DNA of 5,539 nt from a virus (taxonomy: Duplodnaviria; Heunggongvirae; Uroviricota; Caudoviricetes): IMG/VR virus record IMGVR_UViG_2713896903_000003; one strand, given 5' to 3'. The position numbers and the translations under genes were made by a program. The notes under the pieces are model-generated. The model was not told the origin of the DNA. It made no database searches and saw nothing but the letters and a program-made list of their open reading frames with translations. Below, piece by piece: positions 1-4,980 of this stretch; the stretch's first letter is position 1; every line of letters begins with the position of its first letter.

Positions 1-30
1 TTCCTACCGTTGTGAATGCTTCAGGCCAGG

Positions 31-546
31 TCATCGCAAAACATCCTCTGCACTTATCAGTTCGTTCCGCTTCAGGTAGTCCATCGCCTTCTCCGGTAAT
101 TTGCAGTCTGGATTAGCTTTTTTCAGTTGACTGACCAGTCGTTTAACCCACATTGTTAATTCGCCAACCTGATTACTGGATGCTAGTGGATTGTCGGCTT
201 TACCCAGAATGACAGCACAGCAGGCCTCCTTGAGTACCCAATCAACAGCATCTTTCCATGCTCCTGTTTCGACTGGTGGATTCTCACGCTTTACCTGTTC
301 ATAAAAGCGCACGGCTTTAACCAGTCCTTCTGATATCACCGGGACTGGCGGGGTAGTGAATAAGGCCTGAATCTCATAGCTCGGCCTGTCGTTGCCCCCC
401 TCTTTTGTCGGTACATATTTCCAGTCACCAACCCACCTCTTCTCCTGAAAGTCCGTAACGCCTTTTTTCACGTAGCGATATCGCCATGCAACTGGTTTTG
501 CCTGCTCTGCCGTTTCATGCCCTTCCTGATAATTAATCTCGCTCAT
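31..546 (-). CDS. Hypothetical phage protein, 171 aa
   Basis: Full ORF with ATG at 546 and TGA at 31-33. GAGTGGGG SD-like sequence just upstream on the minus strand. Its start overlaps the stop of the upstream small ORF (ATGA at 543-546), indicating translational coupling. No family recognised. Confidence 0.6.
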   Translation of the reverse strand: MSEINYQEGHETAEQAKPVAWRYRYVKKGVTDFQEKRWVGDWKYVPTKEGGNDRPSYEIQALFTTPPVPVISEGLVKAVRFYEQVKRENPPVETGAWKDAVDWVLKEACCAVILGKADNPLASSNQVGELTMWVKRLVSQLKKANPDCKLPEKAMDYLKRNELISAEDVLR

Positions 547-719
547 TCATCGCCCCACTCATCACAATATGCTTCGACCGGAGTTTTTCCTGCTTCGTAG
601 TCATCACGCCAGGCTTCAGCATCAGCAGCACTTCCACCACGTAACTCGGCATAGTCCATTAACAGTTCATGCCATTCTTCAAAACTGACGTTGTATTTAG
701 TTGAACCAAAATCAGCCAT
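543..719 (-). CDS. Small hypothetical protein, 58 aa (MADFGSTKYNVSFEEWHELLMDYAELRGGSAADAEAWRDDYEAGKTPVEAYCDEWGDE); below the ORF-track size cutoff
   Basis: Hand translation of the minus strand. ATG at 719-717 preceded by GAGGAAG SD at about 8 nt. Stop TGA 545-543 overlaps the ATG of the 171-aa gene (ATGA). It fills the otherwise empty 547-711 gap in a tightly packed leftward operon. Confidence 0.5.
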   Translation of the reverse strand: MADFGSTKYNVSFEEWHELLMDYAELRGGSAADAEAWRDDYEAGKTPVEAYCDEWGDE

Positions 720-894
720 TTTGTTCTTCCTCTTCGTCTTTTATTTCGTGATATGAGTAATTGCAGTAGTTAAAGAAAATTTCTTTTGCTTCGTCATGAA
801 TTTCATCAGGTGTTGCGTCATCGTCCACTTCGAATATATCCTCAAAATCTCCACCAGCTATTCCAGTTTCAATAATTATTTTGAACTTTCGCAT
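712..894 (-). CDS. Small acidic hypothetical protein, 60 aa
   Basis: ORF with ATG at 894. Its stop (714-712) overlaps the start of the 58-aa ORF by 8 nt (ATGGCTGA). The upstream AGGAG is separated from the ATG by an 18-nt hairpin (see findings). Highly acidic C-terminus; no family recognised. Confidence 0.4.
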   Translation of the reverse strand: MRKFKIIIETGIAGGDFEDIFEVDDDATPDEIHDEAKEIFFNYCNYSYHEIKDEEEEQNG

Positions 895-987
895 TTCACT
901 GCCGCCCTTTCGGGTGGCCTCCTGCTGTTCTGAGGGTGTAGAAATCCCTCCGGTTAAGGATCGAATTTTTAACAGTGCTAAATTTAA

Positions 988-1344
988 TTATTCAGTTCTG
1001 GATTTTGTCACCCTGCGTATCCGCGCTTTCGCGTTACGCTCAATCTGAATTAACTTTTCTATATTTTTCCGTCTTTCCTGTTCCTCCTGGCGCAATAGCC
1101 TTACATCATCTGCCAGTCTGGTTTCTCTTTTCGCCACAGAGAGCATCCAGTCAAATGGCTCCACAACTGCACCGCAGATTTTACAGCGGACCTGACGCTC
1201 TTTTTCGTCAACCCGGACAGAAGCGTGATGGCAATATGGTCTTTCCGATGGCTCATAAAGAAAATTAACCTGATTACGAGGGCCATCCTCTTTTACCGGA
1301 AATAAAACGATATTGCTTAACTCATCTTCTGGTTTTATTTCCAT
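988..1344 (-). CDS. Hypothetical protein with putative zinc-binding motif (C-H-H ... C-x2-C) and basic C-terminal tail, 118 aa
   Basis: ATG at 1344 preceded by a strong AAAGGAGAGGAG SD at about 6 nt. The ORF track extends it to a GTG at 1401 (137 aa); the ATG is preferred because of the RBS. Motif YCHHASVRV...CKICG read from the translation. Function unknown. Confidence 0.6.
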   Translation of the reverse strand: MEIKPEDELSNIVLFPVKEDGPRNQVNFLYEPSERPYCHHASVRVDEKERQVRCKICGAVVEPFDWMLSVAKRETRLADDVRLLRQEEQERRKNIEKLIQIERNAKARIRRVTKSRTE

Positions 1345-1568
1345 GCTCCTCTCCTTTGATGCGAATGCCAGCGGTAATTGAAGCCTGATAGCTAATTTCA
1401 CTCACAGTACCGCCTCCTGAAAATTACCCTGATAGAAAGCCAGTACACGCTGCATAGCTTCGCTCTTCCGGCACTCGCGACAGATTATATTCAGGCGCCT
1501 GTCGTAGCGGCGTATTTCTCCGTCTGGTAATGACCAGATAAGGTCCGGATCAATCACAGATGTTTTCT

Positions 1569-1823
1569 TCAGATTTGCCCTTGAGAGTTTTTGCGGGCGT
1601 TTTGCCAGTCCTTACGGGCCTGTTCAGACGGGAATAACCCGTAGCCAGAGTTGTATACATCACCACTGGCAACCAGCTCTCTGGCGAGAATGCTCATCAG
1701 ATATCTTGTCGCACCTGTCTTGACTTCCAGTTGCCGTAACGTCTCACGCCCACTCTGGCGTACGAGTTCAACAACCTGCCCTTTAATTTTTTCTCGCTCT
1801 TCTTGTGTAAAAACTTTTGCCAC
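1569..1823 (-). CDS. Hypothetical small protein, 84 aa, possible HTH-like
   Basis: GTG start at 1823 with AGGAGG SD 4 nt upstream (minus strand). Directly downstream of the replication-initiator gene. No family recognised. Confidence 0.55.
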   Translation of the reverse strand: MAKVFTQEEREKIKGQVVELVRQSGRETLRQLEVKTGATRYLMSILARELVASGDVYNSGYGLFPSEQARKDWQNARKNSQGQI

Positions 1824-1863
1824 AAGTCCTCCTGAAAATTACCTCGTGACCTGAAATAAACAC

Positions 1864-2934
1864 TTACCCCCTGAAGCCCGGTGGAATTTCGGTATCTGGT
1901 TCAGAAATGTGATTCACGCAACGCTGGTTGTTCGTACCGCTTACCGGGAGCAACCAGGGGTTTTCAAAATTCCGGTCCGGTCCAAAAAACGTCGTCGCTC
2001 GCTGAACAAATTCCGTTCCCGTTTTCCCGGTAGCCGCCAGGTATCTTGCGTAACGCCTCACACCATCCAGCATGGCTTCTGGTGGCACCCCCTCGCGTAA
2101 TCTGGCCTTCCAGGCACTGAAAGCGGATTTCTTCGGGTTTGCCCCGGCACGCAACGGGTACTCCCGCCAGACCTGTTCGAACACATCCGGATAATCCACT
2201 CGTCCCACAGACTGCCCGGTGTTTTCCGGGACTACCCGATCGGCTTCCCGCTGAATGGCGGAATCGGCTTCAGGCTGCTGCAGTTGGTGTGATTGCTCCG
2301 GCCTTGCGGTCATCACCTGCTGCACAGCGCCCGAATCGGCTTTCAGCGCATACGCTGAATCGGCTTCCGGTGTCGTGCCTGCTGGCTGACCAGGATTGAC
2401 GGTCTGAACACCCCCTGCCTGGTTCGTGGCGTTTTTTACGCCATGGACCATAGTGTTTTGATCTTCTTGATCTGTATCTTTATCTGTATCTTTATCTGTC
2501 GTGACTCGTCGTGACATGTGCGTGACATTTCGTGACGCGCCGTGACAATCGCCATTTTGTTCCCGCTTTCTTTCCCTCTCTCGCTGCGCCCTCTTGCGCT
2601 CTGCAGGAGATTTTGCGGTTTGCGAAATATTGCCGTTGTCCTCTTTAAGCACTTGGCGTTTTTCCCATCCAGTGATTAAATCACCATCAAGTACCCGCCC
2701 CTGCATCGTCTGCAAAATTGAATCAATTACCTCTTCTGTCACGTCGAGCGCACTTGCCAAATCTTCTGTCGTGACATCAATGTGACCTCGCGTGACATTT
2801 CGTGACGCGCTCACCAGGAGGTGGATATACACTGCCATCACTGTTGCAATTGGCTGCCCTGACACCCTGGCAATTGTTCGCCACTTAGGGTCATTTGGCA
2901 TGTCATGCCATAATCTGAGCCAGGCGTTAGCCAT
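1864..2934 (-). CDS. Putative phage replication initiation protein (O-like replisome organizer), 356 aa, with origin-like iterons inside the coding sequence
   Basis: Long ORF. Preferred start is ATG 2934-2932 with AAGAGGTGA SD; the track begins at GTG 2940. N-terminus (AWLRLWHDMPNDPKWRTIARVSG...VYIHLLVSAS) fits the winged-helix pattern of phage/plasmid replication initiators, and the C-terminus (FEQVWREYP...AFSAWKARL...NPWL) fits a motif common in such initiators. Sits where lambda O sits, downstream of the cro/cII equivalents. Contains two CGTGAC iteron arrays. Confidence 0.7.
   Translation of the reverse strand: MANAWLRLWHDMPNDPKWRTIARVSGQPIATVMAVYIHLLVSASRNVTRGHIDVTTEDLASALDVTEEVIDSILQTMQGRVLDGDLITGWEKRQVLKEDNGNISQTAKSPAERKRAQRERERKREQNGDCHGASRNVTHMSRRVTTDKDTDKDTDQEDQNTMVHGVKNATNQAGGVQTVNPGQPAGTTPEADSAYALKADSGAVQQVMTARPEQSHQLQQPEADSAIQREADRVVPENTGQSVGRVDYPDVFEQVWREYPLRAGANPKKSAFSAWKARLREGVPPEAMLDGVRRYARYLAATGKTGTEFVQRATTFFGPDRNFENPWLLPVSGTNNQRCVNHISEPDTEIPPGFRG
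2470..2499. repeat. Tandem 12-bp repeat ATCTGTATCTTT (about 2.5 copies), encoding (TD/KD)n in the initiator protein
   Basis: Read directly: atctgtatcttt at 2470-2481 and 2482-2493, then atctgt at 2494-2499. Immediately abuts iteron array 1. Confidence 0.8.
2500..2546. repeat. Iteron array 1: five direct CGTGAC repeats at 10/11/10/10-bp spacing (candidate origin of replication)
   Basis: CGTGAC at 2500, 2510, 2521, 2531 and 2541, i.e. helical-turn phasing. Lies in the middle of the initiator gene, analogous to lambda ori inside O. Followed by a pyrimidine-rich tract encoding a K/R/E-rich linker. Confidence 0.65.
2732..2810. repeat. Iteron array 2: four direct (C/T)GTGAC repeats plus one inverted copy; the final 20 bp are identical to the end of array 1
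   Basis: GTGAC at 2771, 2782, 2792 and 2802 (11/10/10 spacing). Inverted CGTGAC at 2738-2743. tcttctgtc duplicated at 2732-2740 and 2762-2770. cgtgacatttcgtgacgcgc is identical at 2791-2810 and 2521-2540. Confidence 0.6.
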
Positions 2935-3005
2935 ACTCACCTCTTTTGATACCGAATCTTTTTACTCACAAATTGCCGGAAGTGATCCGGTATGAATATT
3001 GCGAG

Positions 3006-3431
3006 TCAATGCACAGCCACAATATTTCCTGCAGGGCCACCACGATTCATCTGGTTGAAACCAGCGATCGCCACTGCGACAAAATCATCAGCGTCTCTCA
3101 CCAGTCGCTCCCGCGTCTCCACCAGCTCCCGAAAATAAGCTGAACTGTGGCTGCGCATTCTGGCCACCAGCAAAGGTGGCATTGCCTTTTCGATCGCTGG
3201 TAACAACGCCTGAATTTTTTCAACTGCATCAGGGGTGTCTTTCTCTACCCAGCGGAAAATTTTCTGGGTATTGCGAGCCAGGGCTTCCGGATGGCTGTCG
3301 TCATACAGTTCAGGAAACGTCATACCCAACTCAAAATAAGCCTGGGTTATTCCAGCTGCTGGAACTTTTTCGCCATCAGGACGCGCCCAGGCATTCATCG
3401 CCATGCGGATGTGTTCATGCTTGATTTTCAT
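3006..3431 (-). CDS. ydaT: YdaT-like protein (functional CII equivalent of Rac/CP-933P-type prophages), 141 aa
   Basis: ATG at 3431 overlaps the TGA of the upstream HTH gene (ATGA). GGAG SD 8 nt upstream. Size and position, second gene after the Cro-like HTH, match the ydaS-ydaT arrangement. Name assigned from memory of that family, not from a search. Confidence 0.6.
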   Translation of the reverse strand: MKIKHEHIRMAMNAWARPDGEKVPAAGITQAYFELGMTFPELYDDSHPEALARNTQKIFRWVEKDTPDAVEKIQALLPAIEKAMPPLLVARMRSHSSAYFRELVETRERLVRDADDFVAVAIAGFNQMNRGGPAGNIVAVH

Positions 3432-3730
3432 GAATCAACTCCATCAGATAAGCATGCACTACAATCACCTTCAGCATGAACTACATGTGTTTGCCCCAAA
3501 CGAATACCGCTCGCATACTCAGGCCAAATAAGCTCCCAATCATGGGGTCGTAGCTCCGCCCTACTTACTTGGCCTTCCGTCGCAGATTCGATCATAAGGG
3601 CGCGGGTTGGAGATATAGCTGCTCGTCCAGACGCCATTTGCGATAAGTAAGATGGCGATACACCAAGTCTGGCCGCGAATTTCTTAGCATCACCAACCCT
3701 CAATGATTTAATAAACTCTTTTAATGTCAT
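3428..3730 (-). CDS. ydaS: Cro-like XRE-family HTH regulator (YdaS-like), 100 aa
   Basis: ATG at 3730 with GAGGAAGG SD. HTH signature (AKKFAARLGVSPSYLSQMASGR). Divergent from the repressor gene across an operator-rich intergenic region; translationally coupled to the downstream gene. Confidence 0.7.
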   Translation of the reverse strand: MTLKEFIKSLRVGDAKKFAARLGVSPSYLSQMASGRAAISPTRALMIESATEGQVSRAELRPHDWELIWPEYASGIRLGQTHVVHAEGDCSACLSDGVDS

Positions 3731-3827
3731 ACCTTCCTCGGTTTAGTGTTTTTTTGCGAGTTTAGTGTTTAATAAACCATTAAGTCAAGTATTTGCTTGT
3801 TTAGTGATTACTAAAGATAATTACCAC
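3731..3827. promoter_or_regulatory. Divergent promoter/operator region (OR-like genetic switch)
   Basis: Three direct GTTTAGTG repeats (3741-3748, 3760-3767, 3799-3806). Perfect inverted repeat GTTTAaTAAAC (3767-3777). Imperfect palindrome TTAGTGATTACTAA (3801-3814). Leftward candidate promoter: TTGACT (minus, 3788-3783) with TAAACT at 18-nt spacing. Rightward candidate promoter: TTGCTT (3793-3798), 17 nt, GATAAT (3816-3821). Confidence 0.6.
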
Positions 3828-4199
3828 ATGCAAAAAAAAGAAATTCGCCGTTTACGTCTCAAGGAGTGGTTTAAAGATAAAACTCTGCCACCCAAAGAGA
3901 AGAGCTACCTATCTCAACTAATGAGTGGGAGGGCCTCGTTTGGAGAAAAGGCTGCCAGAAGAATAGAGCAAACATACGGGATGCCGGAAGGGTATCTGGA
4001 TGCGGAATACGCAGAACAACCGGAAGCTTCTCCACCACATGCGGGGTTAACGTCTAATCAACTGGAATTATTGCAGATTTTTTCAGCCTTCCCTGAGGAT
4101 GAGCAACGCCAGATAATCAGCGAGTTAAAGCAGAAAAAAGAATCAATGGAAGATCTCATAGCGAGATGGATTGCGGCGCAAAAATGCCGCCGCGCCTGA
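3828..4199 (+). CDS. paaR2: Prophage repressor / transcriptional regulator of the three-component TA operon (PaaR2-like; DicA/cI functional analogue), 123 aa
   Basis: ATG at 3828 preferred over the GTG at 3765 used by the ORF track. No SD, and the -10 ends 6 nt upstream, suggesting a leaderless mRNA like lambda cI from PRM. N-terminal HTH-like segment (LSQLMSGRASFGEKAARRIEQ). Divergent to the Cro-like gene. Symbol from memory of the CP-933P module. Confidence 0.65.
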   Translation: MQKKEIRRLRLKEWFKDKTLPPKEKSYLSQLMSGRASFGEKAARRIEQTYGMPEGYLDAEYAEQPEASPPHAGLTSNQLELLQIFSAFPEDEQRQIISELKQKKESMEDLIARWIAAQKCRRA

Positions 4200-4219
4200 G
4201 TTATAAAACCGGAGGAAAC

Positions 4220-4411
4220 ATGAATAGAGCCCTTTCACCAATGGTTTCTGAATTTGAAACCATTGAACAAGAAAACAGTTACAACGAATGGCTGCGCGCG
4301 AAAGTAGCAACGAGCCTTGCAGATCCGCGCCCAGCAATTCCCCATGACGAAGTTGAGCGCAGAATGGCAGAACGCTTTGCTAAAATGCGCAAGGAACGGA
4401 GCAAGCAGTAA
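4220..4411 (+). CDS. paaA2: Small antitoxin-like protein (PaaA2-like), 63 aa
   Basis: ATG 4220 with GGAGG SD. Stop TAA 4409-4411 lies 1 nt before the toxin ATG. Small, charged, likely partly disordered protein immediately upstream of a ParE-like toxin. The ORF-track start at 4166 is rejected as it has no RBS. Confidence 0.65.
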   Translation: MNRALSPMVSEFETIEQENSYNEWLRAKVATSLADPRPAIPHDEVERRMAERFAKMRKERSKQ

Positions 4412-4412
4412 A

Positions 4413-4691
4413 ATGTTACCCGTGTTATGGCTTGAAAGCGCAGATACCGACCTAGATGATATAACTAGTTATATTGCTCGTTTCGACATAGATGCGGCTG
4501 AACGCTTATGGCAGCGATTAAGGGGTTGTGTGCTGCCGTTATCCGAACATCCGTATTTATACCCACCAAGCGACAGAGTACCTGGCTTGCGTGAGATTGT
4601 AGCCCACCCTAACTATATAATTCTATACCGCGTAACAACATCAAGCGTTGAAGTAGTAAACGTGATCCACGCAAGACGCCAGTTTCCCTAA
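4413..4691 (+). CDS. parE2: ParE/RelE-superfamily toxin (ParE2-like), 92 aa
   Basis: ATG 4413 tightly coupled to the upstream gene. C-terminal pattern REIVAHPNYIILYRV...VEVVNVIHARRQFP is typical of ParE/RelE-fold toxins. The ORF-track start at 4317 would overlap the antitoxin gene and is rejected. Confidence 0.7.
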   Translation: MLPVLWLESADTDLDDITSYIARFDIDAAERLWQRLRGCVLPLSEHPYLYPPSDRVPGLREIVAHPNYIILYRVTTSSVEVVNVIHARRQFP

Positions 4692-4752
4692 CTTTCACTA
4701 CCAATAGAAACATAACAACCGCAACGACTTTATCAAAAGCGTTGTGTTTGTT

Positions 4753-4794
4753 ACGCCCCGTGGTTTAGTTTTTACTTGACTTAAGTTTAATGTT
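4753..4794 (+). promoter_or_regulatory. OL/PdicB-like rightward promoter with operator: TTGACT (4766-4771), 16 nt, TAAACT (4788-4793); inverted repeat GTTTAtTAAAC (4782-4792); GTTTAGT half-site (4753-4759)
   Basis: Sequence cttgacttaa...gtttattaaac is the reverse-complement counterpart of 3767-3789 in the OR-like region, so the same repressor likely binds both. Oriented toward the ydfA-like operon. Confidence 0.5.
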
Positions 4795-4980
4795 TATTAA
4801 ACTAAAAAATACCAACCCCCCCCGCCCCACAGAACGCCGGGCAATACTTCGAGTTACCAGGCAGTGGTCAGGGGTTAAGTAGCCAGCCCGAGGCGTAAGA
4901 ACATGACGGCAGGGTTCAACTTTAACTATGCAGCAGGTTTTTGTTCCGCTACCCCGGCGTTAAGGGGAAATGAGGTCAAC

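Follow-up and report, generated by a model that had tools for sequence, protein, structure and literature searches.

Does the short AT-rich interval between two divergent phage regulatory genes form a genuine immunity switch and, if so, what kind of switch is it? The question arises from a stretch of viral DNA (Caudoviricetes) of 5,539 nucleotides, referred to throughout as the window, in which 97 bp separate the ATG of a ydaS-like gene on the minus strand (3730) from the ATG of a 123-aa repressor on the plus strand (3828). An earlier note, made from the sequence alone, had seen in these 97 bp a divergent switch of the lambda OR type, its operators lying within the spacers of the promoters, and had proposed transcript mapping, binding and reporter experiments. 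Our analysis indicates that 3731–3827 is almost certainly the OR-equivalent control region of a lambdoid immunity switch of the CP-933P/Sp12 type. The switch is already known from CP-933P, a cryptic prophage of E. coli O157:H7, and the proposed experiments were published in 2021 (Jurenas et al., mBio, PMC8630535) on the same 97 bp. The genes and sites around it are the following (positions in the window).

3006–3431, minus strand: ydaT, CII-like activator (Pfam YdaT_toxin; 118 of 141 residues identical to O157:H7)
3421–3438: YdaT operator OM, TTGATT-N6-AATCAA, read from the sequence as TTGATTTTCATGAATCAA (motif from PMC9986795)
3428–3730, minus strand: ydaS, 100-aa Cro-like regulator (Pfam YdaS_toxin, 3.9e-12, and HTH_3; 99 of 100 residues identical to O157:H7)
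3731–3827, no strand: paaR2-ydaS intergenic region, 97 bp, with the OR-equivalent operators and promoters (100% identity to O157:H7)
3828–4199, plus strand: paaR2, 123-aa CI-like repressor without an S24 domain (121 of 123 residues identical to O157:H7)
4220–4411, plus strand: paaA2 (Pfam PaaA2, 1e-19; 100% identical to O157:H7)
4413–4691, plus strand: parE2 (Pfam ParE_toxin, 1.9e-16; 100% identical to O157:H7)

The identity of the locus rests on several independent matches. The 97 bp are an exact substring of the CP-933P locus of O157:H7 (L001, 6332–6428). Positions 3720–3840 recur with at least 99% identity in 582 E. coli genomes, and the wider interval 3400–4250 was found at a coverage of at least 80% in 583 complete E. 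coli genomes, with O157:H7 at 99.1% identity. The EMSA primers FL1 and FL2 of PMC8630535 fall on 3731–3750 and 3806–3827 with 0 mismatches; since their ends coincide with those of the interval, the published EMSA probe is exactly 3731–3827. Primers F-PRM/R-PRM and F-prom-PaaR2 from the same study also have 0 mismatches in the window and place the PRM/PR fragment at 3755–3828, while the published PL primers map to 4692–4809. The flanking genes of the window agree with the annotation at the corresponding prophage locus of O157:H7, the surroundings of which include exonuclease, excisionase, an integrase remnant, dicB and hokD.

The features that characterise a CP-933P-type switch are all found: (i) the 97-bp region, (ii) a 123-aa PaaR2 that starts MQKKE, (iii) a divergent YdaS, (iv) paaA2-parE2 3' of paaR2, (v) PL933P with its OL sites beyond, and (vi) ydaT with its OM box. 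The window and CP-933P/Sp12 of O157:H7 have in common the PL/OL region, the YdaT box, the operator repeats, the promoters and the leaderless start of paaR2, and there is nothing in the evidence that contradicts the assignment. The window is nevertheless a mosaic relative of CP-933P. Its ydaT diverges to the left of about 3363 (hence the 118 of 141 residues), its replication genes differ, and there is a 1-nt difference in the A-run directly after the PL −10. Since ydaT and the replication genes diverge from those of CP-933P, behaviour outside the identical core could differ.

Transcription of the locus can be followed from three promoters.

3759–3788, minus strand: PR933P, promoter of ydaS-ydaT, TTGACT (3788–3783), 18-bp spacer, TAAACT (3764–3759), called by an independent consensus promoter scan
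3793–3821, plus strand: PRM933P, promoter of paaR2-paaA2-parE2, TTGCTT (3793–3798), 17-bp spacer, GATAAT (3816–3821), read from the sequence
4763–4803, plus strand: OL/PL with PL933P, TTGACT (4776–4781), 16-bp spacer, TAAACT (4798–4803), called by the promoter scan; its hexamers are those of PR

The −35 hexamers of PR933P and PRM933P stand back to back, 4 bp apart. That of PRM933P agrees with the consensus at 3 of 6 positions and was not called by the promoter scan, which fits a weak, activator-dependent promoter of the PRM type. The GATAAT at 3816–3821 is followed by 6 nt (TACCAC) and then directly by the ATG at 3828, with no Shine-Dalgarno sequence, as the earlier note had described in predicting a leaderless repressor mRNA. 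That prediction was correct. The PRM933P start determined by 5' RACE is the A of the paaR2 ATG (PMC8630535) and the paaR2 mRNA is therefore leaderless; both mapped starts agree with the predicted divergent promoters. The leaderless message is translated, as the N-terminal sequence of the protein is MQKKE and its intact mass is as expected (PMC8630535). Reading of the sequence alone had thus recovered a real switch, including its leaderless repressor.

In EMSA, specific binding to the 97-bp fragment, with several complexes, was seen for PaaR2 as well as YdaS, and each represses both promoters in gfp fusions; a divergent switch of the lambda OR type with operators inside the promoter spacers has thus been demonstrated on the identical sequence (PMC8630535). 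PaaR2 gives a DNase I footprint of about 78 bp and YdaS one of 65 bp, the latter made up of two blocks (27 and 32 bp); each footprint overlaps the two promoters (PMC8630535). At low level PaaR2 represses PR and activates PRM933P and at high level it represses both, while repression by YdaS begins with PRM and reaches PR when its concentration is higher (PMC8630535). Similar operators at PL933P, beyond parE2, are also repressed by PaaR2 and YdaS; YdaT activates a PRE-type promoter and the locus is bistable (PMC8630535). According to that study, PaaR2 shows no response to mitomycin C (PMC8630535).

What are the DNA elements that the two proteins read? The three direct repeats of GTTTAGTG described in the earlier note lie at 3741–3748, 3760–3767 and 3799–3806 (19 and 39 bp from start to start), and a repeat finder extends the copies to GTTTAGTGTTT or GTTTAGTGATT. 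The two palindromes are also present where the note had placed them: GTTTAATAAAC at 3767–3777, inside the leftward promoter spacer by the independent promoter call, and TTAGTGATTACTAA at 3801–3814 in the rightward promoter spacer, where it grows to 6-nt arms (TTTAGT/ACTAAA) over 3800–3815. There is in addition a 24-nt direct repeat (3753–3776 against 3792–3815, 83% identity).

Repeats and palindromes of this length could arise by chance in intergenic DNA of 31% GC, and the 97 bp by themselves give that idea some room. Of 2,000 dinucleotide-preserving shuffles of the 97 bp, 37 contained some 8-mer three times, 52 had five or more short inverted repeats and 466 had a 6-nt perfect arm, so that the arm is not unusual and the other two statistics are only moderately so. 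The significance to be drawn from the AT-rich 97 bp by itself is modest. Against chance, GTTTAGTG has no further copy in the window (expected 0.17) and none of 200 shuffles contained three copies; a matrix trained on homologous operators and the conservation of the layout in about 60 loci (both described below) point the same way, as does the published specific binding (PMC8630535). Chance is therefore a practically negligible explanation. Decisive here are the conservation seen in homologous loci and the experiments published for the identical sequence.

RNA structure was considered as an explanation for the repeats as well. Perfect inverted repeats of 11 nt (3675–3685/3838–3848) and 9 nt (3749–3757/3830–3838) flank the region and pair in the minimum free energy fold of 3660–3870. 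The fold is no better than that of shuffled sequences (z = −1.44; 17 of 200 fold as well) and this explanation was therefore dropped. A search of the window against Rfam gave no match.

Homologous loci were collected in a scan of one genome per species, which yielded 65 loci in Enterobacterales, Pasteurellales, Orbales, Burkholderiales and Nitrosomonadales. The 200 nt upstream of each repressor gene were searched for GTTTA-N8-TAAAC with at most 2 mismatches. At least two operator sites were present in 57 of the 65 sequences, against 0.2 per control stretch. In 41 loci the operators are spaced by 37–39 bp, and 6 loci, from Pasteurellaceae and Orbales, have a spacing of 48 bp. Counted from the ATG, the proximal operator begins at −29 in the window and 22 other sequences (23 in all) and at −25 in another 7. 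For relatives with the proximal operator at −29 or −25 a leaderless start is predicted; in Photorhabdus/Xenorhabdus and Pasteurellaceae the layout points to a leader. Most loci have a YdaS-like protein as the divergent neighbour, with 36–63% identity.

The shared upstream layout can be read from 5' to 3'. It begins with AGTTTA-N8-TAAAC, then 5–6 nt, then GTCAAG, the reverse complement of the −35 of the Cro promoter. There follow TATTTGCTT, which holds the −35 of the repressor promoter, GTTTAG-N6-(T)ACTAA, a −10, 5–6 nt and the ATG. The −10 is CAAAAT, CACAAT or GATAAT, or TAAACT in Burkholderiaceae. In an alignment of 33 upstream regions (A2) the invariant or nearly invariant columns are those of the ATG, of the −35 block and of the outer pentamers in the two operators, and the distance of 5–6 nt from −10 to ATG is conserved.

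A matrix built from the operators of the homologues, with the window excluded, was used to score the window. The sites considered here are these.

3741–3758, no strand: lone GTTTAGTG half-site (3741–3749) in the ydaS 5' leader; half-site 12.8 against 0.2 for the full 18-mer
3760–3777, no strand: operator A, GTTTAGTGTTTAATAAAC, which holds the 11-bp palindrome and overlaps the ydaS promoter at its spacer and −10
3779–3796, no strand: degenerate middle site overlapping both −35s, placed from the published four equally spaced 18-bp inverted repeats
3799–3816, no strand: operator B, GTTTAGTGATTACTAAAG, filling the 17-bp spacer of the paaR2 promoter and holding the 14-bp palindrome
4763–4780 and 4785–4802, plus strand: OL sites

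Operator A has the top score in the window (24.7 bits) and operator B, which is conserved in A2, the second (22.3 bits), followed by the OL sites at 4785–4802 (20.3) and 4763–4780 (15.1); the next best site reaches 7.7. In shuffled controls the maximum averages 7.5, the highest being 17. No site was called by the matrix in 3779–3796. The block GTCAAGTATTTGCTT at this middle site is strongly conserved in A2, a conservation that could stem from the two −35 hexamers alone.

The third GTTTAGTG (3741) was tried as a full operator and rejected, with its 18-mer score of 0.2 and no conservation in the 32 aligned loci. In the two most closely related diverged PaaR/PaaA/ParE loci (75% and 66% protein identity) it is absent at the aligned position, though words resembling the half-site are found close by at different positions or in a different orientation. 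From these comparisons the third copy is, as far as the sequence goes, a lone and lineage-specific half-site. The coordinates in the earlier note thus stand and its parse of the repeats is revised: the palindromes of 11 and 14 bp are sub-features of two 18-bp GTTTA-N8-TAAAC operators, and the remaining GTTTAGTG is half of a site.

The published study describes 18-bp inverted repeats, four in number and equally spaced, with GTTTAGTAA as the consensus of the half-site; IR1 lies over PRM and IR3 over PR, and in IR2 and IR4 a single half is conserved (PMC8630535). Judged from its text, IR1 would correspond to 3799–3816, IR2 to 3779–3796, IR3 to 3760–3777 and IR4 to 3741–3758, and the PaaR2 footprint of about 78 bp would cover approximately 3741–3818. 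The third GTTTAGTG, a half-site without a partner at 3741, fits IR4 with its single conserved half.

Whether direct or inverted repeats are used was left undecided in PMC8630535, and the units could in principle be three direct repeats (GTTTAGTG, or the approximately 24-nt TTTGCnnGTTTAGTGnTTAnTAAA) bound head-to-tail by an oligomeric repressor. The three identical 8-mers and the 83% identical 24-nt repeat would suit such binding, as would the report that PaaR2 is an octamer with a single continuous footprint (PMC8630535). The homologues, however, conserve the symmetric GTTTA...TAAAC pair while the inner bases vary, and neither the third repeat nor the TTTGC extension of the PR-side repeat is conserved. 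The PR operator is moreover found in both orientations: the reverse complement of GTTTATTAAACACTAAAC, the version seen most often in relatives, is exactly the GTTTAGTGTTTAATAAAC of the window, which argues that this operator is read as a symmetric unit. Direct repeats as the functional units are, on balance, improbable. The functional unit is best read as the 18-bp GTTTA-N8-TAAAC inverted repeat, two copies of which are strong and conserved in the family.

The two proteins that act on these sites are themselves related. Residues 3–48 of PaaR2 and 4–49 of YdaS share 37% identity (BLASTP E = 8e-5), and a helix segment, SYLSQ(L/M)xSGRA, is common to both and kept in both proteins across the loci. 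In phage 434 the HTH domains of repressor and Cro are paralogous, and their recognition helices, almost identical, read the same half-site. PaaR2 and YdaS would resemble that pair in their shared helix, with another protein family and operator sequence. We infer that PaaR2 and YdaS may both read the GTTTA half-site through the same SYLSQ(L/M)xSG recognition helix. The N-terminal domain of PaaR2 is identical over residues 1–65 to PDB entries 7NKV, 8C3K and 8C3L; a literature search found no paper on these entries (on an operator complex, for example). Pfam gave no match for the 123-aa PaaR2 and no lambda CI or Cro family in either PaaR2 or YdaS.

The switch is built on two back-to-back sigma-70 promoters. 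Leftward PR933P drives the Cro-like ydaS and the CII-like ydaT, and the weak rightward PRM933P drives paaR2-paaA2-parE2. Operators sit in the spacer and −10 of PR (3760–3777) and in the spacer of PRM (3799–3816), with a degenerate site between them over the two −35s and an extra half-site at 3741 in the ydaS leader. PaaR2 and YdaS bind overlapping sites, with a bistable switch as the outcome, and there is a second operator pair at PL (4763–4802). Counted from the PRM start, the centre of the PR operator falls at about −59.5 and that of the degenerate middle site at about −40.5. Since it is centred near −40.5, the middle site would be the positional analogue of lambda OR2. Activation of PRM could come about through PaaR2 bound at the PR operator together with cooperative filling of the middle site.

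Features shared with lambda OR are (i) divergent back-to-back promoters between the repressor and cro, with operators common to both proteins; (ii) a weak maintenance promoter activated by low levels of repressor, with a leaderless repressor mRNA; and (iii) further operators clustered at PL, and a CII-like activator acting on a PRE-type promoter. The operators themselves differ in word and arrangement. Lambda has three 17-bp sites 23–24 bp apart, whereas the window has two strong 18-bp GTTTA-N8-TAAAC sites 39 bp apart with degenerate or half sites; divergent promoters with shared operators are thus found and three tandem, cooperatively filled 17-bp operators are not. PaaR2 also differs from lambda CI and LexA-like repressors in that its 123 residues do not include a C-terminal S24 peptidase domain, the domain that permits self-cleavage stimulated by RecA.

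A further difference from lambda is the toxin-antitoxin pair paaA2-parE2, co-transcribed with paaR2, which takes the position of rexAB and looks like a passenger there. Its presence raises the question of whether the repeats serve mainly as the autoregulatory operator of a three-component operon, paaR2-paaA2-parE2, and not as a lysis/lysogeny switch. PaaR2 was, in the account attributed to Hallez 2010 (as cited), first described as the regulator of PaaA2-ParE2, and paaA2 and parE2 lie directly 3' of paaR2 in the window, as they do in its two nearest diverged relatives. Yet LexA-like phage repressors of 206–252 aa with an S24 domain have this DNA-binding domain too, together with the same layout of operators and a YdaS partner, and the locus is bordered on one side by cII-like and replication genes and on its other side by a PL-type promoter. 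PaaA2, for its part, has no DNA-binding motif or domain, and regulation runs through PaaR2, YdaS and YdaT (PMC8630535). An operator that primarily serves the toxin-antitoxin operon is therefore very unlikely, and the immunity switch is the reading we retain.

The Rac prophage of E. coli K-12 offers a second comparison. Its RacR-YdaS-YdaT genes are in the same order as in the window, its Cro and CII counterparts are likewise of the YdaS and YdaT families, and its YdaT box is almost identical to that of the window. YdaT, however, binds the Rac intergenic region and not the paaR2-ydaS region. For the YdaS of CP-933P an identity of only 26% to that of Rac is reported (PMC8630535). RacR is absent among the 120 PaaR2 relatives listed.

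Those relatives are of two kinds: short proteins of about 116–140 aa, and proteins of 206–252 aa with an S24 peptidase domain (PF00717). In the latter, which include repressors from Yersinia aleksiciae and Erwinia, the first 58 or so residues are 60–85% identical to PaaR2 and are followed by the S24 domain. The PaaR2-type DNA-binding domain, the YdaS-type Cro and the layout of operators and promoters are conserved together in approximately 60 gamma- and betaproteobacterial loci. The PaaR2-type domain also occurs in five phage records (Evi, two of Klebsiella, one of them a weak match at 29% identity, and two of Burkholderia), none of which was traced to a published switch study. A literature search found no earlier description of the family-wide conservation of the layout and its leaderless geometry. 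This conservation is an extension of a known kind of switch, not a new kind.

Taken together, the comparisons lead us to suggest, tentatively, that the CP-933P switch is a derived member of an old conserved immunity cassette of gamma- and betaproteobacterial prophages, a proposal that we hold to be a serious possibility, if a little short of probable. Such a cassette would comprise a PaaR2-type domain that Pfam does not recognise and a paralogous YdaS-type Cro with the same SYLSQ recognition helix, two invariant GTTTA-N8-TAAAC operators 37–39 bp apart, back-to-back −35s and a fixed leaderless start. The C-terminus of its repressor would be either a self-cleaving S24 domain or a short non-cleavable form, the short form being accompanied in several cases by a paaA-parE passenger. 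If the cassette is real and undescribed, one operator half-site specificity would be common to prophages of distant genera, and it becomes a question whether these prophages show cross-immunity or whether specificity is set by the inner operator bases.

The layout and the predicted leaderless start are conserved well beyond E. coli, and the layout is common to cleavable and non-cleavable repressors. The homologous loci provide a natural set of variants for the bases read by PaaR2 and YdaS, a matter left undecided in the 2021 paper. The family-level picture also accounts for the wrong starts that gene callers assign to these repressor genes.

The true start of paaR2 is the ATG that has no Shine-Dalgarno sequence, because this choice agrees with the conserved leaderless geometry and with the published N-terminal sequence. 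The open reading frame called mechanically in the window (3765-4199) instead takes a GTG at 3765 as its start codon. N-terminal extension is also frequent in the public annotations of PaaR2 and its close relatives, giving proteins of 130-150 aa rather than 123 aa (protein records P0001, P0002, P0004, P0005). The extension of PaaR2-type gene calls looks like a systematic mis-annotation. In the homologous loci of Photorhabdus and Xenorhabdus (L002-L010, L017), the conserved operator/promoter block is set back from the repressor ATG by a further 48-79 nt compared with the window, so transcription from its promoter would not be expected to give a leaderless start. At locus L016, tandem repeats of about 21 nt replace the conserved operator/promoter block; L006 carries an extra repeated segment.

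Two perfect inverted repeats flank the intergenic region:

3675-3685 and 3838-3848, 11-nt perfect inverted repeat, GCGAATTTCTT and AAGAAATTCGC
3749-3757 and 3830-3838, 9-nt perfect inverted repeat

In a transcript reading through from the PRE-type promoter, both would form pairings that span the start codon of paaR2. The minimum-energy fold includes the two repeats, and is no better than the folds of shuffled sequences (z = -1.44).

Residues 1-58 of PaaR2 (window 3828-4001) form the DNA-binding domain, for which there is no Pfam family. The domain is strongly conserved across loci L020-L063, with 22 invariant residues. It is common to short PaaR-type proteins and to S24-peptidase phage repressors of 206-252 aa, in both gamma- and beta-proteobacteria. 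This distribution looks like the swapping of C-terminal domains on one common operator-reading module. PaaR2 and the Cro-like YdaS also have a motif in common, SYLSQ(L/M)xSGRA (BLASTP E = 8e-5; 37% identity over 46 aa), which is encoded on opposite strands:

3900-3926, plus strand, SYLSQLMSG of PaaR2
3632-3658, minus strand, SYLSQMASG of YdaS

Both partners retain the motif in most of 64 other loci. The Cro partner of Pasteurellaceae has S(Y/F)L(R/C)Q(V/I)E(T/K)G in its place, and the operators of this family are 48 bp apart.

The PR operator of the window (3760-3777) is GTTTAGTGTTTAATAAAC; its reverse complement is exactly GTTTATTAAACACTAAAC, the version found most often in relatives. Comparison with loci L022-L031, L037 and L056 shows that the asymmetric inner bases are inverted while the flanking promoter elements have not moved. 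Nine half-sites in the window score at least 10 on a matrix built from the homologues' operators, and only one of these lies beyond the intergenic and OL regions. This half-site, GTTTATTAA (3708-3716, minus strand, score 11.9), is located within codons 5-8 of ydaS and is strong, and has no partner half.

Relative to the CP-933P prophage of O157:H7, the window has a mosaic junction within ydaT at about 3363. To the right of this point the two are near-identical, whereas to the left (3006-3363) ydaT diverges, with 118 of 141 aa matching, and the replication region (1-3005) is unlike that of O157:H7. Here the window encodes a 358-aa protein (1864-2940) that gave no match in a Pfam search, where O157:H7 has an HTH protein and an ATP-binding protein. 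Despite the divergence of ydaT from the CP-933P copy, the window retains the YdaT operator OM, whose published motif is TTGATT-N6-AATCAA (PMC9986795). OM is present as TTGATTTTCATGAATCAA at 3421-3438, extending over both the stop of ydaS and the start of ydaT. Homopolymer-length differences occur where the PL transcript begins (region 4804-4826): the A-run directly after the PL -10 has six A in the window and five in O157:H7, and the C-rich tract that follows is CCAACCCCCCCCGCCCCAC in the window and CCAACCCACCCCGCCCCAC in O157:H7.
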